From the IMG/VR virus record IMGVR_UViG_3300009160_000036, positions 1-64,000 of that record: 64,000 nucleotides of DNA; one strand, 5' to 3'. Positions 2,846-62,891 of this stretch are shown one piece after another. How positions within the stretch are numbered: the stretch's first letter is position 1; every line of letters starts with the position of its first letter. The DNA is from a virus. Made by a program: the position numbers and the translations under genes. A model generated the notes under the pieces. That model had not been told where the DNA came from, made no database searches, and was given only the letters and a program-made list of their open reading frames with translations.

Positions 2846-3478
2846 ATGGCACGAGGTTATTCAACAGCACGCTCCGAGAGCGCCCTCCGCAGTCTGGGCG
2901 GTGGCTCTGACGAAATCGCATCTTATCGGCAAGCCCGGAGACTCGACAAGGAATACCTTGGTGCTACCAAGGAGCTCCGCTCGCTGATTAAGGACAAACG
3001 CGTCTACATCGGCGATGAGCTCACAGCCTTCATTGACTCGAAGAACCTAGAACTGAGCAAGGTGAACGCACAAGACGGAAACTTCTACAAGGAGGTTGCC
3101 CGCATTACGAAGGAAATCGAAGCCAAGGTAGCCAAGACCCGCGCCGAGTTCGGCGTGCTGGGTGACCTGCCGGTGTCCTATCCGAGACAGGATGCACAAA
3201 CCCTGCGTCGTTATTATGACGACACGATGGTTCAGATGGCATACGTGAAGGGTCCGGAAGACACCAAGGCATCTGCCGGCAAGCAGGTCTTCATCATCGG
3301 CGACCAGCTCCGCAAGGGCGACACTTTTAGCTTCAAGGACAAGGACGGCAACAAGGTCAAGGTGGACATGGTGGGCGCGGGCAAGCCGCTGAAGGACATG
3401 CCTAACCTTGAAGCGGGCATCGACTTGGGAACACCCGTCTACATCCTGCCGGAAGAATACTTCAAGCGAGGCGAATAA
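2846..3478 (+). CDS. MARGY-leader protein 1
   Basis: starts MARGYSTARSE; TGGACA-N6-CA motif upstream at 2825. Confidence 0.85.
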   Translation: MARGYSTARSESALRSLGGGSDEIASYRQARRLDKEYLGATKELRSLIKDKRVYIGDELTAFIDSKNLELSKVNAQDGNFYKEVARITKEIEAKVAKTRAEFGVLGDLPVSYPRQDAQTLRRYYDDTMVQMAYVKGPEDTKASAGKQVFIIGDQLRKGDTFSFKDKDGNKVKVDMVGAGKPLKDMPNLEAGIDLGTPVYILPEEYFKRGE

Positions 3479-4035
3479 TGGCGCGAGGTTACTCACAGTC
3501 GCGTAGCGAGCTTACGGCTCAAGACCTCGCCGACAGGGAAGCGGCAGCTGAACGCGGCACCGGTCGCATCAGCGATAGAAACAAGATGCGTGCGGACATG
3601 AACAAGCGCTTCTACGAGAATGCGGAAATTATCAGGTCGGCATACGAAATCGCATCCGAGGTGCATGCCACCCAAACTCGCCGGGATGGAGCTCCTTACA
3701 TGCAGCACGTCCTAGAAGTGGCAGACGGCACCAGAGGCCCCAAGGCTCGGATGGTAGCCCTCTTGCATGACACAATGGAGGATGGCGGCATCACCAGAGA
3801 GCAGATGGTCGCCAAGGGCATCCCGGCAGATGTGATAACGGCGGTGGAAGCCTTGACGCGTCCCCCGAAGTCGGAGCAGAAGATGACTTACCAAGAATAC
3901 ATCGAGAGAGTGGTGAAGCCTAATGAGCTTGCCCGCCAAGTGAAGATTGCGGACTTGAAGTCCAACCTGAAGAACAACGACAATCCGGGTCAGGTGAAGC
4001 GGTATGAGCGAGCTCTGAAAGCGTTGCTTCCATAA
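3478..4035 (+). CDS. MARGY-leader protein 2 with HD domain (RelA/SpoT hydrolase, Mesh1/SAH-like)
   Basis: H-x-x-Q-x-R-x-x-G-x-PY-x-x-H, ALLHDTMED, VKIADLKSN. Confidence 0.85.
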   Translation: MARGYSQSRSELTAQDLADREAAAERGTGRISDRNKMRADMNKRFYENAEIIRSAYEIASEVHATQTRRDGAPYMQHVLEVADGTRGPKARMVALLHDTMEDGGITREQMVAKGIPADVITAVEALTRPPKSEQKMTYQEYIERVVKPNELARQVKIADLKSNLKNNDNPGQVKRYERALKALLP

Positions 4036-4101
4036 TAGTGAACTGACGGTCACTATTCTCTTGCGTCATACGCCGCCCCCTTTAAGCATAGGGCTTCCCT
4101 T

Positions 4102-4776
4102 ATGAGCGCCCCACAGAAAAAAGAGCCGGTGGAGGACATCCAATGGATAGACGTGGATACCCTTTCGGCTAATCACTACAACCCCAACCGAGTTATGAAC
4201 GCGGAGATGAACTTAATCGAGAAGTCCATTCTTCGCACCGGATGGATTCAACCCATCCTCGTCAATAGGAACAACCGCATCATTGACGGCTTCCACCGCT
4301 GGACGCTTTCCAGACTGTCCTCGCAGCTCCGGGAGCGGTATCATGGCAAGGTGCCTTGCGCCATCCTCGATGTCTCCGACGCGGAGGCGATGATTATCAC
4401 AGTCCGCATCAACCGTGCAAAGGGCACACACCTAGCGTTCCGGATGAGCGATTACGTCAAGGAGCTGGTGGAGAAGCACAACATCACCCTCGAATACCTT
4501 GCGGGCGAAATCGGTGCGACGATGGATGAGGTCCTGTTGCTGATGCGCTCGGATATGTTCGAGCACAAGGATGTGAAGAATTGGGCATACTCGGAAGCTT
4601 GGTTTCCGGCAGAGTCAGGCAGAACCCGCCTACCAACGCTGTGGGACTTCCAAGAAGGTGGCGAGGTCATTAAGAACAAGGAGCGCCAGACGATGATGGG
4701 CGAGAAGTTTGGCTTTGGTGCGACTGCCGTCGACCCGGATGACGAAGAGGACGAAGACGAGGAAATCATGCGATGA
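4102..4776 (+). CDS. ParB/Srx-like protein (IbrB/YbdM-like)
   Basis: ANHYNPN, GWIQPILV, IIDGFHRW, TVRINRAKG. Confidence 0.85.
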   Translation: MSAPQKKEPVEDIQWIDVDTLSANHYNPNRVMNAEMNLIEKSILRTGWIQPILVNRNNRIIDGFHRWTLSRLSSQLRERYHGKVPCAILDVSDAEAMIITVRINRAKGTHLAFRMSDYVKELVEKHNITLEYLAGEIGATMDEVLLLMRSDMFEHKDVKNWAYSEAWFPAESGRTRLPTLWDFQEGGEVIKNKERQTMMGEKFGFGATAVDPDDEEDEDEEIMR

Positions 4777-5348
4777 AAAAGGAAAAGAACATCCTAGGAA
4801 TCTGTGGGTATGCGCAAGCCGGCAAAGATACTTTTGGAAATGCGGTCTGGGAGCTGACCATCCAGAATAACGTGGTGAAATACAAGTTTGCAGAGTCTCT
4901 CCGGGACTCGCTGAACTTCGCCTTTGGCAATCTTGGTTTGAAGAAAGACCTGTGGACAGAAGACCTTGCGGAAAAGACCAAGCTGCGCCCCCTGCTCGTC
5001 GAGTATGGTCGCTATGCTAGGTCAGCCGACCAAGATGTCTTTGCCCGCGTGGTGACCGATAAGATTGAGCACGATTTCCGTCTGGGCGTAACCCTCGCCA
5101 TCATCACCGACCTTCGCTACCTCAATGAGGATGAACTACTCCGCACCTTGGCAGCTTCTAGGGGCTGGGGCTACCAGCGAGTCTGGATTATCAGAGATGG
5201 GTCTGAACCTTCTAACGCAGAGGAACGAGAAAGCATCCACGTTCTCAATTCGGCCTCGCCGCTTGACCGGAGTTACGTCGCTCTGGAAGGCAGAACCGAT
5301 ACCTTGGAAATGCGAGCCAAGGAATACGTGAGGGATTACATCCTATGA
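4773..5348 (+). CDS. deoxynucleoside monophosphate kinase
   Basis: P-loop GYAQAGKDT, FAESLR, IITDLRYLNE. Confidence 0.8.
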   Translation: MKKEKNILGICGYAQAGKDTFGNAVWELTIQNNVVKYKFAESLRDSLNFAFGNLGLKKDLWTEDLAEKTKLRPLLVEYGRYARSADQDVFARVVTDKIEHDFRLGVTLAIITDLRYLNEDELLRTLAASRGWGYQRVWIIRDGSEPSNAEERESIHVLNSASPLDRSYVALEGRTDTLEMRAKEYVRDYIL

Positions 5349-15757: not shown

Positions 15758-16351
15758 ATGGCAAGAGGCTACTCACAGTCCAGAAGCGAAAGCGCCCCCG
15801 ATGGCAGAGCCAAATGGGAAGCGATGCAGGGCAAGAAGAGCATTGAAGCTCTTGCCCGCGTCAAGACCCGCCTTGGCAATGGCGACGTGGGCAATGGCGT
15901 CCTCGCAGATGGGAAACTGACCCTGCGCGACGATGACATCAAGTATCTCACGGAGAGCATGATTGGTCCCAAGAACGAAATCTCCGACATGTTCGACGAA
16001 GGCTATCCCGGTAAGACTAATTACAGGGCATACGACGCGGTGCAAACCCTCCACTTCTATCCCGAAAACACCGACAAGTTCGCTGGCGACATGGCTGGCT
16101 ACATCGAGTCTGCCGCCTTCAAGCTTGAACCTAGAGACTATACCAACGACGCCAACTCTGGTGAAGCATACAATCCGGGCAGGGAGTTTGTCGAAGTTGA
16201 CCCAGAGGTCCTTCAGGCAGACTACTTGTTCGCATTTGGCGTCGAGCTGGATGACAACTCGGCGAAGCGCCTAGCAGAGTCGTTCCGGGAAGCCCTTGGC
16301 GAGTCCATCGAGCAGTGGGCTGAAGACCGAGAAGAAAGACGGAGACGCTAA
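15758..16351 (+). CDS. MARGY-leader protein 3
   Basis: MARGYSQSRSE; TGGACA-N6-CA at 15737. Confidence 0.85.
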   Translation: MARGYSQSRSESAPDGRAKWEAMQGKKSIEALARVKTRLGNGDVGNGVLADGKLTLRDDDIKYLTESMIGPKNEISDMFDEGYPGKTNYRAYDAVQTLHFYPENTDKFAGDMAGYIESAAFKLEPRDYTNDANSGEAYNPGREFVEVDPEVLQADYLFAFGVELDDNSAKRLAESFREALGESIEQWAEDREERRRR

Positions 16352-16354: not shown

Positions 16355-16912
16355 ATGGCACGAGGATACTCACAAGCAAGGTCTGAAAATCTTGATGCTG
16401 GATACAGGCTCAAGACTTTTGGCGAGAACGAGAAGCAAGGTCGGGTAGAAAAACTTGACCGGCTCGTCGAGGGGAAATACATCACCGCCAAGGCGGCCGA
16501 GGTTCTTAAGGAAGACGGGTCGCAACATGATGGTCGTTATTACAATGAGTCCTCCTTAAAAAGGACGTTTGGAAAAGACTTTTTCAAAAAGGGTTGGGTT
16601 CAAGAAAAGAGTGACTTCATCCCCAATGCCGTGATAGAGTGGAAGAATCTTGGTGGACAAATCTTTTACAAGGTTAAAGACATAGAGATGTTCGGTGGCG
16701 TGCCTTACCAGAAGGACGGCAAGTATGTCGGAATGACCTACCTTATGTCGCTTGACGAAAAGGTTCTTGCCGAGAACGGAGGCAGATACAAAACGATTAA
16801 AGAGGCGATTGATGTTCTGGAGACAAACAGCCAGATTTCCCAAAAGCAGTCGGGCGATGCAATGCAGTCTGCATACGAAGCTGCTGGAAGCCCTCGTGGT
16901 TGGTGGGAGTAA
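16355..16912 (+). CDS. MARGY-leader protein 4
   Basis: MARGYSQARSE. Confidence 0.85.
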   Translation: MARGYSQARSENLDAGYRLKTFGENEKQGRVEKLDRLVEGKYITAKAAEVLKEDGSQHDGRYYNESSLKRTFGKDFFKKGWVQEKSDFIPNAVIEWKNLGGQIFYKVKDIEMFGGVPYQKDGKYVGMTYLMSLDEKVLAENGGRYKTIKEAIDVLETNSQISQKQSGDAMQSAYEAAGSPRGWWE

Positions 16913-17541: not shown

Positions 17542-18102
17542 GTGGCACGCGGTTATTCACAATCCCGGTCGGAGTCCAGCAATGCTAAAGCGGAAGCTGT
17601 CCGGGCACAGCGTGCTTCTGATGAAGTCACGTTCTCCAAGCTGGCTTCTGGGACAGACTTTCAAATGTTTGACAGTGAGGACCTAGTGGTCGGCGAGAGC
17701 GTAAAGACTCTCAATGACCTTGAGACAAAGATAGCGGATTTATTTGGCAGCGAAGACCCAGAGGACATTTATTCGAGCTTCACCGCTGATTTCATTGATA
17801 ACAACCCGGAGTTTATCAAAGAGCTTGATAAGGCCAGAGAAGGTGCTTATGAAGGCGGTAAGGAAGAAACTCCTTCTATCTATCAATCCTCTACTGCAAC
17901 CGAGCAACGTTTTGATTACTCTTTTGGCGACGGGTCAAGTGGCACCTACACAACCATCTTAAAGTTCCCCGGCGCGCCGTCTATTGAGATGAAATGGTCT
18001 GTTGAAATGAGCGTATCATACGATTATGACTATAAAAGAGACGAAGAGAACGAAAGCATCTCCTACCGAACAAGGGTAAAAAACGTAAGAATACTAACAT
18101 AA
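17542..18102 (+). CDS. MARGY-leader protein 5 (GTG start)
   Basis: (M)ARGYSQSRSE. Confidence 0.85.
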   Translation: MARGYSQSRSESSNAKAEAVRAQRASDEVTFSKLASGTDFQMFDSEDLVVGESVKTLNDLETKIADLFGSEDPEDIYSSFTADFIDNNPEFIKELDKAREGAYEGGKEETPSIYQSSTATEQRFDYSFGDGSSGTYTTILKFPGAPSIEMKWSVEMSVSYDYDYKRDEENESISYRTRVKNVRILT

Positions 18103-18818
18103 TGGCACGCGGCAACTCCACACGGCGCAACCTTGCGCCCGAAGACATCTCCAAGCTCATCCGGGGAGACAAGACCGCATTGCAGGCTAATGCCGCCAAG
18201 GGTGGTAATGCTCCTGCCGCACAGCCCAATCCTACGGCTCCGGCAGCGACAACACCCACTCCGGTTCCGCAGAACCCGAATGTTCCCACCACTATACCCC
18301 TGACGCAGGCAGAGGTTGATGCAATCAAGGCAGAGTTTGCTGCCGACGAAGCCAAGGAAGTCGCCTTCAAGAAGTATTTCCAGAACCTACAAGACAAGGC
18401 AGAGTTTGACTCCGAGCAGGCAGCCGAAGCTGCACGCGAAGCCGCGTTTAAGGCTTACGTTGAAGGTCAGAGAAGTCTTGCCGAAGCTGCGGCTCTCGCC
18501 TCGCCAAAGAACGCTCAAAAGGCAGGACTCGCCAATGCCAACAAGGAAGAAAAGGGCAAAAAGAAGGAAAAGAGCGGCAAGGAAAAGGCAGGCGAAAAAC
18601 CGTGGTATCTCCGCTCTGGCAGAGGTCCGGGAAGCATTTTATTTGGTCGTGGCAAATCGGGCAACATCAATGAAATTAGCACAGTTGGTGGTGGTGCAGA
18701 AGAGTTTGCGGTGGAAGCCTTGAACAACCTACGGAAGAAGGCGGGCGTCTCCAAGAACTTTCTTCTGGGCAAGGCAGGCCCCTCTGCCCCATCAGCTCCA
18801 TCTGGTCCCTCGAAGTAA
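18102..18818 (+). CDS. MARGY-leader protein 6 (divergent leader)
   Basis: MARGNSTRRN; Ala/Pro/Lys-rich. Confidence 0.75.
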   Translation: MARGNSTRRNLAPEDISKLIRGDKTALQANAAKGGNAPAAQPNPTAPAATTPTPVPQNPNVPTTIPLTQAEVDAIKAEFAADEAKEVAFKKYFQNLQDKAEFDSEQAAEAAREAAFKAYVEGQRSLAEAAALASPKNAQKAGLANANKEEKGKKKEKSGKEKAGEKPWYLRSGRGPGSILFGRGKSGNINEISTVGGGAEEFAVEALNNLRKKAGVSKNFLLGKAGPSAPSAPSGPSK

Positions 18819-18842: not shown

Positions 18843-19490
18843 ATGGCACGTGGTTATTCCCAATCGAGGTCGGAAGATTTGCGCGAACGTAATGAGTTAC
18901 GTGAAGCCGACAAGCCCCAGACGCCCCCCAAGGGAATTAGCGCCAAGCAGATTGATTCTATCTCTGACCCCCTAATCAAGGCGTTGGTCAGACAATCTCC
19001 CATTCTTCCTTCCAAGAGTCCAAGAAATCCCGGAGATAAGGATGTTCTGCCTCTGGATGCCATCTTTGAGTCGGTTTCGGAAGCCATCCCGTCGACCGAT
19101 TTCCTTGAAAAGGAATACAGCAATCGAGCTAAGGCAGCCTATGCTGCTATTGCAACGGATATGCTTGAGCTTAACCTGCTTCAAGCGGAACGCGCTGGTC
19201 GCGTCCGGGCGGCAGCCGAGTATGGTCCCAAGGACGAGGAAGAAGTGGCGGCTCGTATGGACAAGCAAATTGCCGAAATCAAGTCGTCCCTTAAGGACAA
19301 CATCCGTGACCTAGATGAGCAGACGGGCGGCGAACTTGGCATTAAGAGCATGGTTCAAGACTTGGCATACCAGATTACCCAAGGCGTGAGAAACGGCCTT
19401 GAAAAGGGCAATGGCAAGAAGTATGCCCCCACCGAAACGAGAGAGCGCAAGAAGCAGCTCGACTCACTCTACAACTTTATTAGCCAATAA
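18843..19490 (+). CDS. MARGY-leader protein 7
   Basis: MARGYSQSRSE; TGGACA-N5-CA at 18821. Confidence 0.85.
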   Translation: MARGYSQSRSEDLRERNELREADKPQTPPKGISAKQIDSISDPLIKALVRQSPILPSKSPRNPGDKDVLPLDAIFESVSEAIPSTDFLEKEYSNRAKAAYAAIATDMLELNLLQAERAGRVRAAAEYGPKDEEEVAARMDKQIAEIKSSLKDNIRDLDEQTGGELGIKSMVQDLAYQITQGVRNGLEKGNGKKYAPTETRERKKQLDSLYNFISQ

Positions 19491-19899: not shown

Positions 19900-20559
19900 A
19901 TGGCCAGAGGATACGGAAAAGCCGGCAGCGAATCCCAAGCATATGGCGGCAGGGGTTCTGGCGGCGTTAATTGGATTATTAGCAAGGATGCCCACGACAA
20001 TCGCATCGAAGACAACATCAAGAGCAACGCGTATGGCCCTACGCTCAGGGGCAACCTTGGCAACGATGTGGCTGTTGCCAAACAAGCCGTCTTAAAGGAT
20101 GCTCAACGCAAAGAGCTGATTGACCAGAAGTTTGAAGCCAAGGAGAAGGCCACCGCCCTCCGAGGAAAATTAAAAGACTTTGACTTTGAAGATGGAGACG
20201 CTGTGGATGCCGCCCTACCTCGCTATCCGGGCGAACACGGTAAGGACATCTATCAGATGTTTGACGAGTCTCTGGATAGCCGAACGCGTGCCGCCATTGA
20301 CCGTGATGAGCGCCGGCAAGCCCAAGACGATGGCGTCGGGGGTGGCGATGGATACTCCCGCAGAGCGGAAGAGTTTGCCAAGTTCACCAAGGAGCTGCTT
20401 ACGGAAAGAACGGCCACCACGTCTTCCTCTTTTCAGTATCAGCGAGACGGCATCGGTGGCATCATCGCCCAATACAACCGAGACATCTTCAAGCGAGAGA
20501 AGGACATCTTCAACGATGCGGAGAATAAGGTGTATCGCTCGCAGAACCCCGAAGCTTAA
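19900..20559 (+). CDS. MARGY-leader protein 8
   Basis: MARGYGKAGSE; true start inside track ORF 19867. Confidence 0.85.
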   Translation: MARGYGKAGSESQAYGGRGSGGVNWIISKDAHDNRIEDNIKSNAYGPTLRGNLGNDVAVAKQAVLKDAQRKELIDQKFEAKEKATALRGKLKDFDFEDGDAVDAALPRYPGEHGKDIYQMFDESLDSRTRAAIDRDERRQAQDDGVGGGDGYSRRAEEFAKFTKELLTERTATTSSSFQYQRDGIGGIIAQYNRDIFKREKDIFNDAENKVYRSQNPEA

Positions 20560-20562: not shown

Positions 20563-21054
20563 ATGGCACGTGGCTACTCCAGTGCTATGACCGAATCGGA
20601 ACGCGTCATTACGGGCAAGAAGACAAAGCCTAGTGACCCGGCATACGAGCCTGTCCAGATGGATGGCGACTTGGTGCGCCGCAAGAACGGCTTCAAAGCC
20701 CCGCAGCTCCAACCCGACTTTAAGCCAGATAAAGTGTATGCGGAGATTGGAATGAAGTATCTCCGCGCCGACCAGAAGCTTACCGACCAATCCCCCTCCG
20801 AGAACATTAAGGAGAATGACCCCTATTGGTTCATCGCGGCCGCAAAGGAAACTCCGCGCCAGCGTTGGCTGGAAATCGGAGATGAAGGCATCCGTGCCAA
20901 CCTGCGTTCGGCTGGATTCAAGGATTGGGCTAATGTCGATGGAGTTGGACCTGACCGGTTGATGGCATCTTGGATGCTCAACTCGAAGTTCTTTGACCTT
21001 TCTGGCAAGGTTCCGGTGCAGATAGCGCCTATCCCGAAGACGTTCACCAAGTAA
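20563..21054 (+). CDS. MARGY-leader protein 9
   Basis: MARGYSSAMTESE. Confidence 0.85.
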   Translation: MARGYSSAMTESERVITGKKTKPSDPAYEPVQMDGDLVRRKNGFKAPQLQPDFKPDKVYAEIGMKYLRADQKLTDQSPSENIKENDPYWFIAAAKETPRQRWLEIGDEGIRANLRSAGFKDWANVDGVGPDRLMASWMLNSKFFDLSGKVPVQIAPIPKTFTK

Positions 21055-21773: not shown

Positions 21774-22556
21774 ATGGCGCGGGGTTATTCACAAAGCAAA
21801 AGCGAGCTTAACACCGATTATGGTCGGGAAAATCAATTGCTGAAAGAAGACCTTCCCCGGAATCCTATTATGAAGACCACCGTCGAGCAGGAGCGCGACT
21901 ATTGGCCGATGATTAGAAAGTTTTACGCCGATGAAGCCAAGGCAATAGACAAAGAATACAAGCCAATGGTAGCCAAGGTGAAGAAGCTCCCAGCCGACGA
22001 GCGCATTAAAGTAATGGGGGCTATTGAAAGATTGCAAGACCTAGTTGGGCAACATGTTAATCGCTACATGAGCGACATCAATGAGGGGCAATCTGGCAAC
22101 CTTGTTGAAATCAATCGGGCAGACACCTTAAAACAGAGGATTGTCGAGCGCATCGAGCAACTCCCAGAATGGGTCAGAAGCACGATGTATGCCCCGGCAG
22201 ATAAGATTGGAGAGCTTTCGAGGGGGGCAGATAGACCTACGCTTACTTCGGTTGAGGGCGGAGGCAATATTGGCTCATTTACCGACAGCCCAACCCAAGC
22301 TGCCAATTTTGGCAAAGGGACAGGGACTTATGGCATCCAGCGTTTCTACACAGCCAAGGACATCGACTCTTTTGACAAGATTATTGACCTCCAGAGAGTA
22401 GCCAGATTTGCCTATGCTTTTAGCGCCAATGAAGAGAACGACTTTATCAAAGAAACCGTTCGTGATGAGCGCGAGTATTTGGTTACTGGCATCAAGTGGA
22501 AAGAATCCACTTTAAAAGAGCAGATTGGGACTGAGCGGTCTAAGGCTACCATATGA
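21774..22556 (+). CDS. MARGY-leader protein 10 with ADP-ribosyltransferase-like C-terminus
   Basis: MARGYSQSKSE; LSRG...SFTDSPTQAANF...EREYLV fits the R-S-ExE pattern; TTGACA-N6-CA at 21753. Confidence 0.7.
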   Translation: MARGYSQSKSELNTDYGRENQLLKEDLPRNPIMKTTVEQERDYWPMIRKFYADEAKAIDKEYKPMVAKVKKLPADERIKVMGAIERLQDLVGQHVNRYMSDINEGQSGNLVEINRADTLKQRIVERIEQLPEWVRSTMYAPADKIGELSRGADRPTLTSVEGGGNIGSFTDSPTQAANFGKGTGTYGIQRFYTAKDIDSFDKIIDLQRVARFAYAFSANEENDFIKETVRDEREYLVTGIKWKESTLKEQIGTERSKATI

Positions 22557-22928: not shown

Positions 22929-23663
22929 ATGGCAAGAGGTTATTCGCAGGCTAAATCCGAGGAAAGCAGAGAAATGCGCCGTCAAGGCCAAGCTCTTATT
23001 GATAAGGCACAGGCTATTGAAGCCAAGGAGATGGCCGATAAGGTTATCGCCAAGGAAGCAAAAGCCCAAAACCTTGAACCGGGCCGCGACCCGATGCGTG
23101 CGCTCAACCAGACGGCAGCCCTATTGACGGCAGGACCTTCGGAAGAGGATAAGAATATCCGTGGTGGCTATGATGCCGAGAGATTCAACCGCCGGAAGGC
23201 CGATGCCGAAGCCCGTCTTATGAAGGTGAAGGAAGTCCTAGAAGCGTCGAAGAACAATAAGGAGTTCTTTGAGAAGCTGGGCGAAGCCAAGGAAATGACC
23301 ATCGAGGGCAATTACTCCGTCGAGAAAGGTCTTCTTTACAACGGCAACCTTGGTGGCAAGAAGCGTGCAGAGCAGTTCCTAGAATCGGTCAAAGAAGGAC
23401 TCAAGGAAGGTTCTTTCGGCGACGCGTTTCGTCAGGCCAAGGTCACGTTCAAGGGCTCCCGCAAGGATGAGGTTCGGGTGGACTTCCCGGCTGGGACCGA
23501 GCTACCTCGCCGCTCCGACCTACGCTCCGCAATCAGAAGCTTGGGAACGGCGATGACATACACGCAGACGGAGCAGTATGGCGATGGCTTTGGCCATACC
23601 CCGATGCCCAAGGTGACCTTCCGGGTCGGTGGCGAAGAAGTCGATACCATCGACTACATGTAA
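22929..23663 (+). CDS. MARGY-leader protein 11
   Basis: MARGYSQAKSE; TTGACA-N6-CA at 22907. Confidence 0.85.
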   Translation: MARGYSQAKSEESREMRRQGQALIDKAQAIEAKEMADKVIAKEAKAQNLEPGRDPMRALNQTAALLTAGPSEEDKNIRGGYDAERFNRRKADAEARLMKVKEVLEASKNNKEFFEKLGEAKEMTIEGNYSVEKGLLYNGNLGGKKRAEQFLESVKEGLKEGSFGDAFRQAKVTFKGSRKDEVRVDFPAGTELPRRSDLRSAIRSLGTAMTYTQTEQYGDGFGHTPMPKVTFRVGGEEVDTIDYM

Positions 23664-49209: not shown

Positions 49210-49458
49210 ATGCCCGCAAACGGATTATTTGTCGGTCTTCCCAAAGCTACGATTGAAGCCATTCGAGATAAGGCGGTTACGTTTATCCTAGAAGGCAAGA
49301 CTATCATGAGCTACGGGGATGGTTCCACGAATGCCTCGAAACAATTTGCAATGCCCCCGCAGCAGATGTTGCAGGAGGCAAATTACGCGTTGCTTCGGAT
49401 GGAAGGTGGCCGCACAAGAGGTCTTTACACGAACTACAATCGTCTCGTTGACCGTTAA
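49210..49458 (+). CDS. head-tail adaptor (lambda gpW-like position and size)
   Basis: 82 aa between terL and portal; TTGACA-N5-CA at 49191. Confidence 0.6.
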   Translation: MPANGLFVGLPKATIEAIRDKAVTFILEGKTIMSYGDGSTNASKQFAMPPQQMLQEANYALLRMEGGRTRGLYTNYNRLVDR

Positions 49459-51197
49459 TGCCCCTCGAACCCCAGCCTAATCAAAAGCCGCCCGGACTCG
49501 TCGACCGACTCCGAGTTAGCTTGTCTAATCTTCTTAAGCCCAAGGCTTATCAGGGTGCGTTTGAGTCGACGCGTTACAGCGTCCACCGGACTCGTATCGA
49601 CGCTCCGCAGCCAACCGACTTCCGTCAGGAAATGTCGGGTTCGACTCGCCGAGAAATGGTGCGCCTATCGCGCTGGCTGGAAAAGAATAACGGCCTCTAC
49701 AAGCAGATGATTAAGGACACCGCCATTTACACGGTGGGCGAGGGTATCGGGCTTCAGTGCTTGGGTGGAGACTACGATTGGCAGAACGTTGTGGAAGCTG
49801 AATGGGAACAGGAGTGCCTGAACCCGGAAGTCGCTGGACGCTTCTCGATGCTGGAGTGCCTATTCATTATTTGCGAGGCGCTTGACCGAGATGGCGAAAT
49901 CTTTGCGATTAAGTGCAAGACGAAGAACGGCGGTCCGAAGTTTCAGATTATCGAAACGCACAGAATCGAGACTCCCCCAGACGCATCGTCGATGGTGGAC
50001 ATCTTTGATGGCATCAAGTTCGACAAGCTTGGCAGGCCGATAGCCTATTACGTCAAGCAGATGGATGGTAAGTTCCAGACCATTCCGGCGGCGTCTATGA
50101 TGCACATCTTTGACGCGGAATATGCGTCGCAGAGCCGAGCTTTCCCACCCCACCAGCACGCAATCAACAATTTGCGCGACGAGATGGACCTATTGGCGAT
50201 GGAGAAGGTCGCCGTTAAGGACAATTCCCGCACCTCCCGCATTCTCAAGGTCGAAGACCCGAAGATGGACATCGGCGATGTTGGTCTTGGTCAGCCGATG
50301 GGCGAAGGCAGCTCAACGACCGTGAACACCGACCCGGATGCGATGAACCGTATCCTTGGTGGTGTGACCGCAGTGCTCCAGAACAACGAAAGCTTGGTGT
50401 CCTATGCGTCAGCCAGACCCTCGTCGGCTTTTGCCGGATTTATTGACCACCTTCGTCGAGATTCGGTCATGGGCGGGCTTCCGTATGAGTTTGTCGCCGA
50501 CCCTGCGCGGGCAGGCGGAGCTGCTGTTCGATTGATAGTGGCAAAGGCTGGTCGATTCTTCACCCACCGTCAGACAGTCATCATCAACAGATTCCTACAA
50601 CAATACTTCCAATTCTGGTTGGGAATCAAAATCGAGCGCAAGGACGTCCCGAACGCAAAGAATTGGTGGAAGACCGAGTGGGTATGCTGTAAGTCGGTGA
50701 CTGTGGACGCCGGCAGAGAGGGGCAGAACGAAAGAGCTGACCTAGACATGGGCAGAACTCCGATTAGCGATGACTTCCAATCTCGTGGCTACAACTTTGA
50801 AAAGACAATGCGCAAGATTGCACGCGACAACGCGTTCATCCAGCGAGTGTCCAAGGAAACAGGTATCGCAGAGGACAAACTGTGGCGTAAGTCTCCTTCG
50901 GGAGGCGCAGGTGGTCAACCGGGCGGTCCGGGAGCGCCTAAGACAATCCCAGAGGGTGCATTGGGCATCGTTATGCCGGGGCCAGATGGTAATCCGCAGA
51001 TTGTTCCGATTGACCAGATTGCTGGCGCACAAGAAGGCGAACCGCCTGACCCGCTGACTAACACAGACCCAGAACTCAAAGCTCCTCCGCATCAAACAGG
51101 TTGGGTTCCAGCAGAAATGACGGATACTTCTGTTGACACATTGCCAAAACAGAATCCCGGTCTTTCCCGAAACCGAGAACAACCTTACCAACGATGA
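49458..51197 (+). CDS. portal protein, lambda family
   Basis: RWLEKNNG, RDGEIF, DGIKFDKLGRPIAY, GLPYEFV; synteny. Confidence 0.9.
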   Translation: MPLEPQPNQKPPGLVDRLRVSLSNLLKPKAYQGAFESTRYSVHRTRIDAPQPTDFRQEMSGSTRREMVRLSRWLEKNNGLYKQMIKDTAIYTVGEGIGLQCLGGDYDWQNVVEAEWEQECLNPEVAGRFSMLECLFIICEALDRDGEIFAIKCKTKNGGPKFQIIETHRIETPPDASSMVDIFDGIKFDKLGRPIAYYVKQMDGKFQTIPAASMMHIFDAEYASQSRAFPPHQHAINNLRDEMDLLAMEKVAVKDNSRTSRILKVEDPKMDIGDVGLGQPMGEGSSTTVNTDPDAMNRILGGVTAVLQNNESLVSYASARPSSAFAGFIDHLRRDSVMGGLPYEFVADPARAGGAAVRLIVAKAGRFFTHRQTVIINRFLQQYFQFWLGIKIERKDVPNAKNWWKTEWVCCKSVTVDAGREGQNERADLDMGRTPISDDFQSRGYNFEKTMRKIARDNAFIQRVSKETGIAEDKLWRKSPSGGAGGQPGGPGAPKTIPEGALGIVMPGPDGNPQIVPIDQIAGAQEGEPPDPLTNTDPELKAPPHQTGWVPAEMTDTSVDTLPKQNPGLSRNREQPYQR

Positions 51198-52201
51198 TTA
51201 GAAGCGACCTAACTTACGCCCTTTCGACGGGAAAACCCCTTCTCATCGACCCAATTAAGGCGAAGTCGTTTCTGGCTAATGCAAATGCAATTCTCTCTAA
51301 CCCAGAGCTTGCATATCTTTTGTCCCAGCACGTTTCTGGTAAATCCTATCAACCGAAGAAGGACGTTGGTCCCAAGGGTAAGCGTTTTGCGGCATCTGAA
51401 GACGACGATATGGACACGATGGCTGGCGCAACCGGCATTTCCGTCCCCACCCGCCCTTACATCCGTGATGGTATCGGGATTATTCCCGTCCGTGGGGTAA
51501 TCGGAAAGTGCCTTAGCCCTCTTGAGGCGATGCTTGGATGCGCGGACATCGACACGATTGCCAAGACCCTAGATGAGTGGAAGGACAACGATAACATCTT
51601 TGAGGTCATCCTTAACATTGATTCTGGCGGTGGTTCTACCACCGGATTAGAAGAACTTGCCAAGAAAATCCGCAATTACGAAAAGCCGACCATCGGTTTT
51701 TCGGATTCCGATATGGGTTCAGCCGCTTTCTGGATTGGCTCGCAGTGCAAACGCCTAGTGGTGACGTCCAGCTCCTCGATTGGAGCTTGTGGCGTCTACA
51801 TTACGATGAATGACGACCGAAAGAAGTATGAAAAAGAAGGCCGCGAGGTCGTAGTCATAAAATCCGGCAAGTATAAAGCGGCAGGCGTGGAAGGCACCAG
51901 CCTTACCCCTGACCAAATCAATGCCCTACAAGACGAAGTGGACGAGCTGCACCAACGGTTCATCCGTGACGTAGTGGCAGTCCGGCAGTTTGCGCACCTT
52001 GAAGACCTTCAGGGTCAGTCCTTCTATGGCGATAAAGCCGTGGCACGCGGACTATGCACGGGATTGGTGGACTCCTTCGAGGACCTCGTTGAAAGCATCA
52101 AGGCAACCCGCCGAGTGGCACAGAGAACTACACTCCCTTCCCTTTACTCCCAACCCACGTATCCTACCTCTTATGAGGGCATCCAACCGTACGGAGGTTG
52201 A
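51194..52201 (+). CDS. S49 (SppA/gpC-like) prohead protease
   Basis: NIDSGGG, MGSAAFWIGS, IGACGV, SGKYK. Confidence 0.9.
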   Translation: MIRSDLTYALSTGKPLLIDPIKAKSFLANANAILSNPELAYLLSQHVSGKSYQPKKDVGPKGKRFAASEDDDMDTMAGATGISVPTRPYIRDGIGIIPVRGVIGKCLSPLEAMLGCADIDTIAKTLDEWKDNDNIFEVILNIDSGGGSTTGLEELAKKIRNYEKPTIGFSDSDMGSAAFWIGSQCKRLVVTSSSSIGACGVYITMNDDRKKYEKEGREVVVIKSGKYKAAGVEGTSLTPDQINALQDEVDELHQRFIRDVVAVRQFAHLEDLQGQSFYGDKAVARGLCTGLVDSFEDLVESIKATRRVAQRTTLPSLYSQPTYPTSYEGIQPYGG

Positions 52202-52230: not shown

Positions 52231-53898
52231 ATGAGCAATAAGTCCGTCGAAACCCAACTCAAGGAAGCCATCGAGGCCTCCAAGCAGACCCTCGCCCTCT
52301 CCGAACAGGTGACTTCGCTCGCCCAAGAGAAGGATGCGCTCTCGAAGCGCCTCGCTGAAATCGAAACTTCCCTCTCCTCCCCAAAGGCTTCCGAGCCGGT
52401 CGCAACCGACCCCCTCATCATCGCCAAGCTGGGAGAACTGCTCGCTGAACGCGAAGCCTCTGCCAAGCTGATTAAGGCTCTGTCCGAAAAGACCGACGCC
52501 GCCCTCGCCTATGCCACCAAGGTTGAGAAGGAAGCCGCCAAGAAGGCCGACCTCAACGAATACGTGAAGCAGAAGATTGAAGACGGCGAAGAAGGCAACA
52601 CCCCCGCAGAGAAGATTAACAACTCTGGCAAGGGTAAGTCCAAGGCCGAAATGCCCCAGTTCATCAAGGACAAGATTGAAGAAAAGGAAGAAGAGTCCGA
52701 AGAAGAAGCTTGTGGTCCTATGAAGTCCAAGAAGGGCAAGGCCAAAGCTGCCAAGGCCTCTTTCGATGACGAAGACGGCGATTTTGGTGACCTCGACGAC
52801 GAAGAAGTGATGCTCATCAAGCAGTATCGCAACTCGTCCAAGACGACCGCCAAGCCGAGCGCTGATTCGACCCTCAAGTCTCCCCTCAAGGAAGAGAAGA
52901 AGGATTTCGGCGACATTATCCCGCAACCCGGTCTCGACCCTAACAAGAACAACGTCAACAAGGACAACACTACCTCTACTGGTATTAAGCTCGCGTCCAA
53001 GGCCTCCAAGAAGGGCGAAACCGACGTTGAAGAAATCATGGAGTCTCCTGATGTCCAAAAGGACGAAGGCGAAGAACATACCCACGAGCAGACCCTATCC
53101 ACACCTGAAAAGGGTGCTAAGAAGGGCAAGAAGGCCGAAGAAGCTTCTCTCGAACCCCAAGCCGCTACTGCCGCCAAGGGCGAAGCCCTCCCGCAGGCCG
53201 TTATGGATTACATCAAGCAGCTCGTCGAAAAGGAAAAGCAGGCTAATTCCCTCCCCGGAATTGGCAAGCACGACGTTGTTGGTCAGCCCGACCAAGACGG
53301 CGAAGAGTCTGTCCTAAACAAGAAGGATGGCAAGAAAGCCGAGTCCATCGAAAAGTGCGTCAAGGACAACTGTGCTGACGATACCACCAAGGTTCACGAA
53401 GACGGCTGTGCCCCGACCAAGGGTAACACTACCCCTGTCGGCGACCTCCAGCCCCTCGCTGCCGAAGCCCCTAAGTCCTTTGATAACGTTGTCGAAGCCG
53501 CCGTTGAGCGTTTCGCCACGGTTGCCAAGGCAAAGAAGGAAGCCGAAGAACAGCTTTCCAAGATGGGCGAGACTCTTGCCCTCGAAAAGAACGCCAAGAC
53601 GGAAGCCTATGCGGCCGTTGCCCAGCTCCAAGCCAAGTTTGAAGCCCTGATGGGTAAGGTTGCCCAGATTGAAGCCTCTGACAAGTCCATCGAAATGAAG
53701 GCCGCCAAGATTGTCTCTGCCTCTGCCTCCGAAGCAGTGGCTGTGGGTATGGACTCTGCCGGTATCAAGACCGACCAAGAAGTGATGAATCAGTTCGAGG
53801 CTATCTCCGATGCCCGTGAGAAGAACAAGTTCTTCATGGCTAACCGCAAGGTTATCGAAGGCGTTGCGATGAGCAACCTCAAGCGTCGCTCCCGCTAA
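52231..53898 (+). CDS. scaffolding/core protein (charged, coiled-coil)
   Basis: position between protease and capsid; K/E/A-rich. Confidence 0.65.
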   Translation: MSNKSVETQLKEAIEASKQTLALSEQVTSLAQEKDALSKRLAEIETSLSSPKASEPVATDPLIIAKLGELLAEREASAKLIKALSEKTDAALAYATKVEKEAAKKADLNEYVKQKIEDGEEGNTPAEKINNSGKGKSKAEMPQFIKDKIEEKEEESEEEACGPMKSKKGKAKAAKASFDDEDGDFGDLDDEEVMLIKQYRNSSKTTAKPSADSTLKSPLKEEKKDFGDIIPQPGLDPNKNNVNKDNTTSTGIKLASKASKKGETDVEEIMESPDVQKDEGEEHTHEQTLSTPEKGAKKGKKAEEASLEPQAATAAKGEALPQAVMDYIKQLVEKEKQANSLPGIGKHDVVGQPDQDGEESVLNKKDGKKAESIEKCVKDNCADDTTKVHEDGCAPTKGNTTPVGDLQPLAAEAPKSFDNVVEAAVERFATVAKAKKEAEEQLSKMGETLALEKNAKTEAYAAVAQLQAKFEALMGKVAQIEASDKSIEMKAAKIVSASASEAVAVGMDSAGIKTDQEVMNQFEAISDAREKNKFFMANRKVIEGVAMSNLKRRSR

Positions 53899-54716: not shown

Positions 54717-55631
54717 ATGAGTAACACTCTCGGTGGTATTAACCTCCAAGTCATTGCGCAGGACAGTCTCACGACCCTCCTTGCTCAGTTCCCCTTGGTC
54801 AACAAGTTCACAACTGACTTCGGTGGAGACATTCTCCAGCGCGGTGAGTCCGTGACTACTCGCATCGCCTCTGGCGTTGCTGCAACTGACATTGCTGCCG
54901 GCGGCTACTCCCGCTCCAATGTCTCCTCCACGGCCAAGACCGTGACCCTGAACAAGCATAAGGGCTTCGTGATGGGCTTCGCTGATGGCGAAGTCGCTCG
55001 TGGCGGTTATGACGTTCTTCGTCGCACATTCATCCGCCCGGCTGCTCACGCTGTCGTCAAGGCGGTCATGGATGACGTCTTCCTCCTCTGCACAGCTGGC
55101 AATTTCTCCTCGACTGGCTACAATGGCACCGTTGCTGCTTTTGATGCTGACGCTGTTGCTGACATCTCGCAGGCCCTCACCGATGCCAACGTGCCTATGG
55201 CTGGTCGTACGCTTATCGTGCGTCCTTCCCTCTACACGTCCCTCGCTAAGGATAACTCGATTCAGGCGCAGTATGCTTCCGGCACCAATGCTCCTCTGAC
55301 CGAGAACCTTCTGCCTCGTATCCACGGCTTTGAAATCAATCAATACACGGCTCTGCCTAACGGTGGCGTCTCTGGTTTCGGTGCTCTCGATGCAAATCTG
55401 AAGGGTATCGCTGTTTCGCCTGAGGCCATCCTCATCGCGGCTCGTCTGCCTGCTACCCCGACCAACTGGTATGGTAACGTCGCTACTGCGACGGATGCTG
55501 AATCCGGTCTGTCGATTCAGGTTCGTGAGTGGTATGATGGTGACGCCGGCGAGCAGAAGCTCTCGATGTCCATCCTCTACGGTATGAGCGTCGGTAACGC
55601 CGCCTGCCTCTCGAAGATTATCGCTTCGTAA
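54717..55631 (+). CDS. major capsid protein
   Basis: 304 aa, GESVT, VTLNKHK, L..ANVP..GR.LIV, GFEI; strong codon bias; followed by terminator. Confidence 0.85.
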   Translation: MSNTLGGINLQVIAQDSLTTLLAQFPLVNKFTTDFGGDILQRGESVTTRIASGVAATDIAAGGYSRSNVSSTAKTVTLNKHKGFVMGFADGEVARGGYDVLRRTFIRPAAHAVVKAVMDDVFLLCTAGNFSSTGYNGTVAAFDADAVADISQALTDANVPMAGRTLIVRPSLYTSLAKDNSIQAQYASGTNAPLTENLLPRIHGFEINQYTALPNGGVSGFGALDANLKGIAVSPEAILIAARLPATPTNWYGNVATATDAESGLSIQVREWYDGDAGEQKLSMSILYGMSVGNAACLSKIIAS

Positions 55632-55706: not shown

Positions 55707-55907
55707 ATGGTCCGAGCACCTAAATACGCTGCCGTGATTATAGATGACGGCGACAATCTGACTATCACGCAGTATGCCAATGCTACTCAAGCCAAGGAGG
55801 ACTATCGAGAAGCTCTGGCTGAAGGATACACGGCATACTTTTATGCCCGCCCGATGAAGCGTAAGACTACTTTGGACGACCCAGCCCCCATCGAGATTAC
55901 CGACTAA
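55707..55907 (+). CDS. small putative virion protein (shared post-capsid domain)
   Basis: TTGACA-N6-CA at 55687; similar to the N-terminus of the next gene. Confidence 0.65.
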   Translation: MVRAPKYAAVIIDDGDNLTITQYANATQAKEDYREALAEGYTAYFYARPMKRKTTLDDPAPIEITD

Positions 55908-60389: not shown

Positions 60390-60392
60390 GTC

Positions 60393-60721: not shown

Positions 60722-61237
60722 ATGGCACGAGGATACTCAAATGCACAAAGCGAGCGGCTTTCCCGCACCGTCAACGTCATCGCAATGATGGCCAAAGACA
60801 GGGGCATCGACCCCAGCTCAATGACCTTGGGTGCTGCCGAGAAGTTCGTCCTAGCACGTTACAATGCTCCGGGTGAGAGAGGTCGCTTCGAGGCAGACAA
60901 GACCACCCTCCGGGATGAACACGGCGAACAGTCCTTCGAGATGCGTGCCAATGGAATGCGTGCCCCTTCTTACTCCAAGTGGGTAAAGGACAAGGTGGCT
61001 ATGATGCTCTTCTCCGATAAGACCGCCAAGGACCGCGCCGACTTTGAAGCAACCCCTGAAGGTGCTGCCCTCCGAGCCACCAAGGAAGCCACCTACAAGG
61101 CTATGATGGCAAGGTTTGAGAAGGGTGCAGTCCAAATCCCTTACGAGGAACAGAGGAAGCTGGATGCCGCTAATGATGTGGCTGACAAAGCCCTTCGAGC
61201 CGCCCAGAGGAATTGGGAACGCCTTAACAACCGCTAA
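60722..61237 (+). CDS. MARGY-leader protein 21
   Basis: MARGYSNAQSE; TGGACA-N5-CA at 60701. Confidence 0.85.
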   Translation: MARGYSNAQSERLSRTVNVIAMMAKDRGIDPSSMTLGAAEKFVLARYNAPGERGRFEADKTTLRDEHGEQSFEMRANGMRAPSYSKWVKDKVAMMLFSDKTAKDRADFEATPEGAALRATKEATYKAMMARFEKGAVQIPYEEQRKLDAANDVADKALRAAQRNWERLNNR

Positions 61238-61256
61238 TTGACAAGCCTACAAGAAT

Positions 61257-61871
61257 ATGGCCAGAGGATACTCCCAATCTCGTTCAGAAAATCCGACCCA
61301 GCGGCTTGATTCGCTCTCTCAACAACCCATTCCCAATGCTAATGCCGCATTGATTGGCAATGGTCTTGGGAGCGTTGAAAAGCTTGCCCTCGAACTTAAG
61401 GGCAGTCGCGCCTATGATGGCAACTATGAGACAATGAGCGACAAGGACATCGAAGAAACCGCCCAGCACGTCAAGGAAGTCAATGACAAGGCAAAGTCTG
61501 ATATCGACAAGCTTCTTGCCGGCGGTTGGGACGAAGACAAAATCCAGAAAGCTTATGAGATAAAATCTACTCTTTCAAAACTCTGGCAACAAAACGCCAC
61601 TCCTAATCCAAATGACCACTTTGCCCACGAAGCGGTAAACATTGACCGCATCGACATCACCGCCCGTGAAGTGAACGAATACAAGGAAATGCAGTATGAA
61701 ATCAACGAGCTTCTTATGGAGGACGGCCCTCAAGGAGGCGGGTTTGACGAAGGACGTCGAGTATCCAGCGACCGTGAAGACGAACTATCCAACGACATGG
61801 GTGACATTGAGCGTAAGTTTGTCACTCAACTCAAGGACCTTCGCACCCGAATCGAGAGGATTACCGGTTAA
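61257..61871 (+). CDS. MARGY-leader protein 22
   Basis: MARGYSQSRSE; TTGACA-N6-CA at 61238. Confidence 0.85.
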   Translation: MARGYSQSRSENPTQRLDSLSQQPIPNANAALIGNGLGSVEKLALELKGSRAYDGNYETMSDKDIEETAQHVKEVNDKAKSDIDKLLAGGWDEDKIQKAYEIKSTLSKLWQQNATPNPNDHFAHEAVNIDRIDITAREVNEYKEMQYEINELLMEDGPQGGGFDEGRRVSSDREDELSNDMGDIERKFVTQLKDLRTRIERITG

Positions 61872-61874
61872 TTT

Positions 61875-62891
61875 ATGGCAAGAGGATATTCCACCGCCCG
61901 CTCTGAACAGAGCGACGCTATGCGCAAAGAAGCCACTCGGCTTATTGATGCCGCCCAAAAGATTGAAGCCAAGGAGCGTGAGGATGCGGCCGCGAAAGCC
62001 ATCGCCGATGCGAAAGCCAAAGCCGAAGCCCTTGTTGCTTCCGGCAAGATTCCGACGGTAGACGAAGTGACTGCTGCTCAAAGGGCAGCCAATGCGTTTT
62101 GGGAAGAAAACAAGCCAGCGATTAAAACAGGCTTATACAACGCTAATGCTTGGGCGTCGGAAAAGGCATTGGCAAAGAAGTATCAAGCAATGGTCGAAAG
62201 AGTCCGAGAAATGGAAGAAGAACGAAAGGCCCCTGAAAAGCTCAAGGAGCTTGCCGATGCCGCCCTGCGCGACAAGGCCGAAAAGCAAGCCATAAATATT
62301 ACCAAAAAGGGCAACGACTCTGGCGACAAAGCCACAAACGAAGGCCCCAAGGCACAGAAACTTGCCCTCAAGGTCGAGAAGATTGCGACCAAGGCGTCCA
62401 TCGCCGCCGATAAATACTTTGGAGCGAAGGACAAGAAGGGCGTGAACGCCCAGAAGAACAAGGAGAAGATGAAGGAGCTCGTCGCAAAGCAGGTTAATGC
62501 TATCCCCTTGGAAGTCCGCATCGCCATTCAGCAGCTTTCGAGACACAACCTTGGACAAGACTTAATGGACGCCGGCGTTAACGCCCTCAAATACAACAAA
62601 TCGAGCGGAAAAATCGTTGGTGGCGAGGACCACGAGAACGGCCGAAATGGAGACGGTGCTTTTGAATACAGCAGTTGGGGTGCTTTACGCAACGAAGCCC
62701 GCCGTGAGGGTGTGGACCAGCGCGTTGGCAACGTCACCCACAAGGGTGTCACTTACAAGTGGAAGACGGAGGATTCATCCTACAAGATTGGCTGGGACCC
62801 GAAGCAGTTTGCTACCCACGGCAGAATTACAATCAGCGCCGGTGGTAAAACAATTTTCGAGGGCGAAGAATTGGGCATTGAAGGCGGCTGA
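61875..62891 (+). CDS. MARGY-leader protein 23
   Basis: MARGYSTARSE. Confidence 0.85.
   Translation: MARGYSTARSEQSDAMRKEATRLIDAAQKIEAKEREDAAAKAIADAKAKAEALVASGKIPTVDEVTAAQRAANAFWEENKPAIKTGLYNANAWASEKALAKKYQAMVERVREMEEERKAPEKLKELADAALRDKAEKQAINITKKGNDSGDKATNEGPKAQKLALKVEKIATKASIAADKYFGAKDKKGVNAQKNKEKMKELVAKQVNAIPLEVRIAIQQLSRHNLGQDLMDAGVNALKYNKSSGKIVGGEDHENGRNGDGAFEYSSWGALRNEARREGVDQRVGNVTHKGVTYKWKTEDSSYKIGWDPKQFATHGRITISAGGKTIFEGEELGIEGG

Follow-up and report, generated by a model that had tools for sequence, protein, structure and literature searches.

A short N-terminal peptide shared by 23 mostly unrelated proteins of a freshwater phage with a lambda-type head module: a possible capsid-loading address

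The IMG/VR record IMGVR_UViG_3300009160_000036 (78,596 bp, 53.6% G+C; hereafter G000), the first 64 kb of which form the window analysed here, is, judged by its gene content, that of a tailed phage with a lambda-type head module. It is matched in DNA and RNA libraries of freshwater and lake water, and its completeness is estimated at 79%. This study concerns a short peptide, here called the tag, which stands at the N-terminus of 23 proteins and for which an earlier examination of the letters alone (the sequence-only reading) had proposed a role in targeting a set of proteins to the capsid for injection with the DNA. The 23 open reading frames (ORFs) lie on the plus strand and open with M(A/S)RG(Y/F/N); all 23 start coordinates reported by that reading were borne out, as were the lengths of 122-338 aa, and the start codon of ORF 17542 is GTG. 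Named by their first nucleotide, and with the part that follows the tag called the cargo, they are the following:

2846..3478, + strand: tagged ORF, 210 aa, MARGYSTARSE, no function match; T(T/G)GACA 15 nt before the ATG
3478..4035, + strand: tagged ORF, 185 aa, Aph1-like HD (p)ppApp/(p)ppGpp hydrolase cargo (predicted; Pfam HD_4, PDB 7SMG)
15758..16351, + strand: tagged ORF, 197 aa, no function match
16355..16912, + strand: tagged ORF, 185 aa, no function match
17542..18102, + strand: tagged ORF, 186 aa, GTG start, no function match
18102..18818, + strand: ORF, 238 aa, degenerate tag MARGNSTRRN..
18843..19490, + strand: tagged ORF, 215 aa, no function match
19900..20559, + strand: tagged ORF, 219 aa, MARGYGKAGSE
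20563..21054, + strand: tagged ORF, 163 aa, MARGYSSAMTE
21774..22556, + strand: tagged ORF, 260 aa, ADP-ribosyltransferase (ART)-like cargo with invariant R-G / S-F / E-x-E (alignment, AlphaFold2 (AF2) model, fold matches)
22929..23663, + strand: tagged ORF, 244 aa, no function match
29635..30210, + strand: tagged ORF, 191 aa, acidic cargo
30217..30897, + strand: tagged ORF, 226 aa, MSRGYSQSQSE
30923..31552, + strand: ORF, 209 aa, degenerate tag MARGYYQASGT
31557..32342, + strand: tagged ORF, 261 aa, with the sole Cys of the 23
32800..33510, + strand: tagged ORF, 236 aa
33510..34118, + strand: tagged ORF, 202 aa
34115..34792, + strand: ORF, 225 aa, long tag MSRGYTTGVRGGFQARSE, RadC-like JAB cargo (E..HNHP..S..D)
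34998..35366, + strand: tagged ORF, 122 aa
53926..54654, + strand: ORF, 242 aa, partial tag MARGF followed by a Gly-rich disordered stretch (31 aa), between scaffold-like and capsid genes
60722..61237, + strand: tagged ORF, 171 aa, inside the structural module
61257..61871, + strand: tagged ORF, 204 aa, inside the structural module
61875..62891, + strand: tagged ORF, 338 aa, inside the structural module

In 19 of the 23 proteins the tag runs, as had been described, to a glutamate at residue 11, which is preceded by Ser in 18 cases and by Thr in one, with mostly Arg or Lys at residue 9, Ser or Ala at residue 8, and a variable residue after the glutamate. ORF 34115 has a longer tag that ends in ARSE at residue 18, and ORFs 18102, 30923 and 53926 retain only MARG(N/Y/F). 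When the variants of related phages (see below) are included, three parts can be distinguished, namely M-A-(R/T)-(G/R), 3-10 polar residues, and (R/K/L)-x-S-(E/D). The tag is strictly N-terminal: its first four residues occur 23 times right at ORF starts and three times elsewhere in long frames, where none of the three continues as a tag, and no further copy was found in the last 14.6 kb of the record. Residues 1-38 of 21774 and 1-31 of 53926 are disordered in the AF2 models.

The bodies behind the tag are mostly unrelated to one another. A BLASTP comparison among the 23 proteins minus their first 12 residues gave weak local matches only, the best being 2846 with 34115 (E 0.005) and 22929 with 61875 over 22 aa, and the tag stands on HD, JAB, ART-like and other unrelated bodies, as expected of the portable peptide on non-homologous cargos that had been proposed. 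The description of the proteins as charged and free of transmembrane segments and signal peptides also held, all 23 being hydrophilic (grand average of hydropathy -0.2 to -1.0) with no fitting hydrophobic stretch, apart from a 14-residue Gly/Ala run in 53926. Within the libraries and collections searched, no described family carries this tag.

Selection on the tag acts on the peptide, because its synonymous sites are scrambled. Across tag codons 2-11, nucleotide identity falls from 0.77 at codon positions 1 and 2 to 0.36 at position 3. Where two tags agree in a residue, their codons agree in 35% of pairs, about what codon usage predicts; Arg and Ser alternate between both of their codon families, and the upstream DNA is 28% identical. 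The earlier claim of varied synonymous codons is thereby confirmed, and the nucleotide-level translation signal that the sequence-only reading had raised as a counter-explanation of the conservation is improbable, the RNA sequence not being conserved. Tag codons do lean to A-ending synonyms compared with the bodies (GCA 15/23, GGA 10/23, AGA 8/23, TCA 8/23); this mild preference is expected near a start codon and does not account for the conservation of the tag.

Relatives of the phage were found via the capsid protein (22 IMG/VR loci with 66-93% identity), and five whole relative records (G001-G005) were fetched; L-numbers denote loci. Tag variants were recognised as follows:

G005: 15 tagged genes, MARG(S/N/Q)..GR(S/A)ARSE, also given as MARGSNSREGRSARSE
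G001: 24 tagged genes, MATRS(T/N)xQxLxSD
G004: 2-3 tagged genes, MARGxSRxxSE (also written MARGxSRAxSE)
L010: 4 tagged genes, MARGNNQSQSSVRSE
L011: 2 tagged genes, MPTR...LQSE / LKTD
L046-L048: 4-6 tagged genes each, MARGxSRASSE, MARGxxASxGRAARSE and a 9-residue MARGxLKSD

Of the search of viral metagenomes for the tag pattern that had been suggested, one part succeeded and one did not: relatives with the same head module carry variants, and the exact pattern of G000 had no match in IMG/VR or in JGI metagenome contigs. A control scan with the exact G005 pattern matched only G005's own record. Each variant therefore seems confined to one lineage, although near-identical records may have lain outside the search.

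Orthologous cargos carry the tag of the genome in which they reside. The JAB cargo opens with MSRGYTTGVRGGFQARSE in G000, with MSRGSNGRGTRGGREARSE in G005 and with MATRSVSQTALQSD in G001, its bodies being 33-43% identical, and the ART-like cargo (21774) has MARGYSQSKSE in G000, MATRS... in G001 and either MARGNSRASSE or MARGSSKASSE in lineages other than these. Local tags are likewise found on the orthologs of 15758 (MARGYSQSKSE in ortholog P0003, MARGNSRAQSE in P0004), 2846 (MARGTSRAQSE in G004), 3478 (MARGASRSLSE in G004), 22929 (64% identical in G005, where the tag is MARGQNASTGRTARSS) and 31557; the G005 ortholog of 18102 opens with MARGRGAGRNALSE. In these comparisons it is the genome, not the cargo, that the tag follows, and since orthologs wear the local tag, it must be transferable between unrelated proteins. 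Concerted change within a genome further implies one common, lineage-specific partner that reads all tags of one phage, and this reader is probably encoded by the phage.

Two other ideas about the tag were discarded. A role as the joint of read-through polyproteins does not fit, as neighbouring tagged ORFs are in frame only in some cases, nor does an N-degron exposed by a cut before Tyr5, as relatives have S, N or Q at residue 5. As a separate observation, repeated N-termini of other kinds occur among relatives that lack MARG tags: three adjacent ORFs of G003 (L038-L041; ~42383-44046) open with M..K(Y/H)AESGTGGIPRRAFNDPRAL, and L019 (2324, 4004) and L021 (227, 1889) each have two ORFs of ~480 aa that open with MPTEEGDKR.G.. 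up to S(D/E)V. Further tags, or simply paralogy, may lie behind these repeats.

The tagged proteins have almost no cysteine: one Cys in 4,929 aa in G000, none in 3,218 aa in G005 and one in 5,663 aa in G001 (2 in 13,810 aa in total), compared with 1.46% in the other ORFs of G000 (binomial P about 2e-30). Untagged genes that lie within the tag clusters are rich in Cys, as in 16944-17537 (+ strand; 7 Cys in 197 aa) and in the HNH-like 32370-32795 (+ strand; 9 Cys in 141 aa), and the depletion therefore follows the tag and not the neighbourhood. Ejection proteins of model phages, counted from annotated records, are comparable: T7 gp6.7, 7.3, 13, 14, 15 and 16 together have 5 Cys in 2,586 aa (0.19%, with none in the 2,065 aa of gp15 and gp16) vs. 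1.19% in thirteen other T7 proteins, and in P22 no Cys occurs in the 1,309 aa of gp7, gp20 and gp16 vs. 0.85% in other P22 proteins. Capsid, portal and terminase proteins are not depleted in G000, T7 or P22. A 985-aa ORF in the tail module of G000 (65900-68857, beyond the window) likewise has no Cys, as do the tagged proteins and T7/P22 ejection proteins, and is possibly the tape measure or another ejected protein.

An upstream motif common to tagged and virion genes, which had been claimed, was recovered as T(T/G)GACA-N13-16-ATG. It precedes nine tagged genes, and three more with one mismatch, while the other 11 follow within these short operons; the same motif with the same spacing stands before the virion-module genes 49210, 55707, 59025, 59560, 62912, 74062, 76061 and 77724. 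The hexamer occurs 88 times on the plus and 37 times on the minus strand of the window, and at 18 sites the distance to the start codon ATG of a tagged or virion gene is 13-16 nt and a loose CCA..TA.cAct comes after the hexamer (e.g. at 2825, 15737, 18821, 21753, 22907, 29613, 30901, 49191, 55687, 59018, 59538, 60701, 61238 and 62892, + strand). The primase gene, the methylase gene and some small genes have it at other distances. Because a sigma-70 -35/-10 pair would need a longer spacing, the motif may be a phage-specific promoter or start signal. A Shine-Dalgarno (SD) sequence was found before no gene of G000, and many tagged ORFs begin again within 0-7 nt of the stop codon before them.

The stretch 60722-62891, between the head genes and the connector/tail genes, holds three tagged genes, and tagged genes are found at the same place in relatives. 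Contigs of lake metatranscriptomes cover many tagged genes; neither timing nor level can be read from them and DNA carry-over is possible, so that they count neither way. Directly upstream of the first two tagged genes is a 3'-phosphoadenosine 5'-phosphosulfate (PAPS)-reductase-like gene (1736-2821 of the window, + strand; phrog_2302, E 2e-80). G004 has the same order of this gene and tagged genes, and the gene also occurs in the tag-less G002 and G003; it is therefore probably unrelated to the tag.

The head module and its surroundings comprise the following genes, in the order p82-portal-S49-555 aa-53926-capsid:

44906-46753: large terminase
49210-49458: 82-aa gene (p82), directly before the portal gene
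49458..51197, + strand: portal protein of the lambda family
51194..52201, + strand: S49 prohead protease, lambda gpC-like (PHROG head maturation protease, E 4e-51; Pfam Peptidase_S49, 66.6 bits); candidate tag-trimming enzyme
52231..53898, + strand: 555-aa charged protein in scaffold position (by synteny only), with predicted long helices; candidate tag receptor
54717..55631, + strand: major capsid protein

The protease was assigned from its Peptidase_S49 score (PF01343, 66.6 bits against a cut-off of 24.9) and from its position between the portal gene and the scaffold gene. ORF 53926, between the scaffold-like and capsid genes, had been presented as a tagged member inside the head operon. Its position stands, and what it carries is MARGF, not the full tag. 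The position is that of the lambda decoration gene D; the AF2 model is poor (predicted local distance difference test (pLDDT) score 61.5) and found no fold match. The family is kept in tag-bearing relatives, beginning with MARG in phages with MARG tags and with MATR in G001, L011 and L012. It opens with MP.. in L002-L004 and L016, the cargos of which are MARG-tagged, so that co-variation of this N-terminus with the tag is partial. In a comparison of gene content only the 53926 family and the 84-aa ORF 59560 were present in 4/4 tag-bearing and 0/2 tag-less genomes; with six related genomes compared, the sample is too small to single out one of the two as the receptor. Directly after the capsid gene lies a 906-aa ORF (55907-58627 of the window, + strand) with 34 Cys (3.8%), the opposite of the tagged proteins. 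It had no Pfam or PHROG match and may be a large decoration or head-fibre protein.

Three cargos resemble known effectors, which agrees in part with the effector-like cargos of the sequence-only reading; the other 20 of the 23 have no recognisable function, with no Pfam or PHROGs match, and for 22929 and 31557 a search of the ESM Atlas gave no usable match either. ORF 3478 matches Pfam HD_4 with 27.4 bits (cut-off 27.2), and among solved structures it comes closest to the (p)ppApp hydrolase Aph1 (PDB 7SMG, E 4e-15), with Rel/SpoT hydrolase domains next. It is predicted to be an Aph1-like small alarmone hydrolase acting on (p)ppApp/(p)ppGpp. Aph1 was discovered adjoining a MuF-fused (p)ppApp synthetase toxin (PMC10083569).

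All 11 aligned sequences of the 21774 family, down to 26% identity, keep R150-G151, S168-F169 and E232-x-E234, in the order of the Arg, Ser-x-Ser/Thr and Glu-x-Glu motifs of R-S-E clade ADP-ribosyltransferases. The AF2 model (pLDDT 73.7) has weak fold matches: Foldseek placed ExoS, ART2.2 and Vis first (E about 1) and VIA placed Vis first (Z 4.9), so that both structure aligners rank R-S-E ADP-ribosyltransferases at the top. No Pfam match was obtained, the family profile found nothing among PDB sequences, and no longer fused forms were found. We regard the protein as ART-like, not as a proven ART. G001 has three ART-like paralogs.

A phmmer search with 34115 gave 136 representatives, which have the conserved core E...HNHP...S..D of RadC-like JAB domains; the motif E...H-N-H-P...S-x-x-D is invariant in an alignment of 57 sequences and in a second alignment. 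Pfam RadC or Prok-JAB is matched by four homologs and not by 34115 itself. Among 57 homologs of at least 300 aa there were matches to Phage_Mu_F in 21, to Phage_min_cap2 in eight, to a prohead protease domain in two and to a portal domain in one, and several long homologs carry ART domains as well. At 62 of 80 IMG/VR loci the ORF that contains the JAB domain is 350 aa or longer, with the domain at the C-terminal end in 61 of these 62, and ten such ORFs that were tested included three with min_cap2 and two with MuF. Proteins of the MuF/gp7 type are head-internal, portal-associated, proposed carriers of injected effectors (PMC5512222, PMC5576092, PMC10083569). The 78.6-kb record, at its estimated 79% completeness, had no match to MuF (PF04233) or min_cap2 (PF06152), and the tag may therefore do the carrier's job in G000.

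Cys depletion, a JAB cargo in common with MuF/min_cap2 proteins, gene position and upstream motif, and the shape of the tag are all signs of a partner in the virion. The reading that we consider in the first place, and to which we give an even chance, is that the tag is an address for capsid loading, with trimming and injection, comparable to the capsid-targeting sequence (CTS) of T4 and operating in a lambda-type head with an S49 protease. The tagged proteins would be made together with the virion proteins, and the tag, at the end of a flexible linker, would dock the cargo onto the assembling prohead, the scaffold, the portal, the capsid interior and the S49 protease being candidate docking sites. 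The cargos would become enclosed in the head, where the S49 prohead protease would probably cut the tag after its conserved Glu/Asp, and they would leave through the tail with the DNA to take effect on the host as soon as infection begins. Docking, cleavage, packaging, injection and late timing are all steps that we infer.

N-terminal capsid-targeting signals are established for the internal proteins of T4 and for DarB of P1, and the prohead proteases of both phages cut after Glu (PMC9024508, PMC3012670). The T4 CTS steers proteins to the prohead core and is removed by the prohead protease, and its cargos, once injected, target host defence or transcription (PMC3012670, PMC9024508, PMC5512222). 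Like the tag of G000, it is a short N-terminal peptide with an acidic last residue on otherwise unrelated proteins (IPI, IPII, IPIII, Alt). The two have no sequence similarity, the head of G000 is lambda-like with S49 and not a gp21-type protease, and G000 and its relatives have 15-24 cargos per genome (about 20% of coding capacity) vs. a handful in T4; moreover, the tag of the G000 group differs between close relatives and changes in concert, and its packaging and cleavage are putative. The T4 CTS is thus the functionally closest system, followed by the DarB signal, and the G000 system is not a member of the T4 system, because protease family, portal family and tag sequence all differ. In P1, likewise, an N-terminal stretch of less than 30 residues of DarB suffices to bring this large anti-restriction protein or a reporter into the head (PMC9024508); unlike in G000, only a single protein has been described with the signal, loading relies on Dar proteins in an ordered set, and many cargos do not share a common tag.

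Other systems share single traits with the tag. MuF/min_cap2 toxins and polyvalent proteins also bring variable effectors (ART, RadC-like JAB, alarmone enzymes) into the head on a constant module (PMC5576092, PMC5512222, PMC10083569). That module is a folded domain of 100-350 aa in one polypeptide per phage, whereas in G000 it would be a peptide of 11-16 residues on many small proteins. The cargo-loading peptides of encapsulins are, like the tag, short terminal peptides on flexible linkers that serve diverse cargos at the interior of an HK97-fold shell. They are usually C-terminal, hydrophobic and uncleaved, and encapsulins neither package nor eject DNA. The E proteins of the giant phages phiKZ and SPN3US are, as proposed for G000, many head-internal proteins that the prohead protease cuts after Glu and that are ejected (PMC7411985, PMC10052503), but they have long propeptides and no common tag, and the protease family and capsid size are different. 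Going by the predicted genes, what is new in the G000 group is the scale, with 15-24 cargos and about 19-23% of the genome, together with a minimal tag of 9-16 residues, its concerted lineage-specific evolution and its occurrence in a lambda-type S49 head.

Several points weigh against capsid loading. The evidence for presence of the tagged proteins in the virion, for cleavage and for injection is indirect. Most tagged genes fall into two clusters, at 15.7-23.7 kb and at 29.6-35.4 kb, with non-structural genes around them, a placement that would also fit early accessory genes, and the T(T/G)GACA motif is no more than a putative promoter with presumed late activity. The distant relatives G002 and G003 share the head module (capsid 66-70% identical) without MARG tags. 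No (R/K)-S-(E/D) site is present in the portal, scaffold-like, 53926 and capsid proteins, and such sites occur only in the S49 protease's own N-terminus and in three small or tail-module ORFs, so that no shared cleavage motif supports the link to the protease; we know of no defined cleavage specificity for S49 (gpC-type) prohead proteases. ORF 53926 may be an external decoration protein, yet it opens with MARG. Avoidance of Cys also fits export through another channel, and an 'effector library' is an extrapolation from three cases. To our knowledge, 23 cargos (about 110 kDa per single set) would be far above any described head load with a shared tag.

The main rival reading is a tag that is a docking or recognition peptide for another shared machine, either an export route of phage or host to the envelope or medium, or an enzyme that modifies the first residues. 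Concerted, lineage-specific change of the tag needs only a common reader and not a capsid, most tagged genes lie outside the structural module, and Cys avoidance is typical of proteins that are exported unfolded. Such a machine is in our view unlikely: no secretion, radical-SAM or peptide-modifying gene was recognised in G000, the PAPS-reductase-like gene beside two tagged genes also occurs in the tag-less G002 and G003, the tag has no hydrophobic or twin-arginine signal features, and both the JAB link to MuF/min_cap2 and the motif in common with virion genes point to the particle. Quite improbable is a pro-peptide or degron that would leave the proteins inactive or short-lived until a cytoplasmic protease (S49 or host) removes or recognises it, and that would so time their activity with no packaging involved. 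It is improbable that a polar peptide of 11-16 residues at the end of a long flexible linker could inhibit proteins of unrelated fold, host degrons need no concerted change between close phages, and Cys depletion and the MuF/min_cap2 link would be left unexplained, even though the conserved S-(E/D) boundary with a variable next residue, the disordered linker and the potential toxicity of several cargos (ART-like, JAB) would suit such a role.

The lack of SD sequences, the A-ending codons in the tag and the many restarts close to an upstream stop invite an explanation from translation, in which the conserved start serves as initiation context or has a nascent-peptide effect in strongly expressed genes. 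We give this very little credence, given the scrambled synonymous sites, the change of codon family at Arg and Ser and the lack of a conserved RNA sequence, and given also that eleven residues including the distal S-E are conserved, that capsid, portal and other strongly needed genes have no tag, and that the peptides of relatives are quite different (MATRS..L.SD). The least credence goes to descent from one fast-evolving paralogous family of which only the N-terminus is still recognisable and which has no addressing role. Distantly related pairs do exist (22929 and 61875, 2846 and 34115, 29635 and 30217), as do the three ART-like paralogs of G001; HD, JAB and ART-like proteins are nevertheless different folds with untagged homologs elsewhere, and descent alone is insufficient where orthologs exchange tags between lineages.

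Some observations on the record stand apart from the tag. A 138-aa ORF (28404-28820 of the window, + strand) with the A-rich run accaaaaaaacc... upstream has 73-85% identity in G001, G002, G003 and G005 and no match in G004; the deepest contig in 4/4 lake metatranscriptome libraries covers ~28403-28830, which may represent a very abundant discrete transcript. The G005 record (43,380 bp) is rated 100% complete by CheckV, yet it has no match to the tail genes 68876-77969 that G000, G001 and G004 have in common; G005 is probably only part of a genome, and for this phage group estimates of completeness look unreliable. When one genome per prokaryote species was scanned with the capsid protein, no related prophage came up.

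Returning to the capsid-loading address, a more general form of the proposal, which we hold more tentatively and at somewhat less than an even chance, is that one family of freshwater phages, whose heads are lambda-type, possesses a short cleavable N-terminal code that evolves together with a component of the head, is transferable to any protein that is soluble and Cys-free, and loads 15-24 different injected effectors per virion. Phage proteins that enter the cell with the DNA are known for few model phages, and finding them usually needs virion proteomics. If the proposal is true, the sequence itself would reveal the injected proteome and metagenomes could yield lists of injected effectors. 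Enzymes of anti-defence and host takeover may be among these, with the Aph1-like hydrolase, the JAB cargo and the ART-like cargo as examples. Near-total absence of Cys may be a useful general predictor of ejected proteins. The tag would represent a third way of delivering variable effectors, beside MuF-type fusions and giant polyvalent proteins, and it would be a minimal portable handle for packaging foreign proteins in lambda-like heads.

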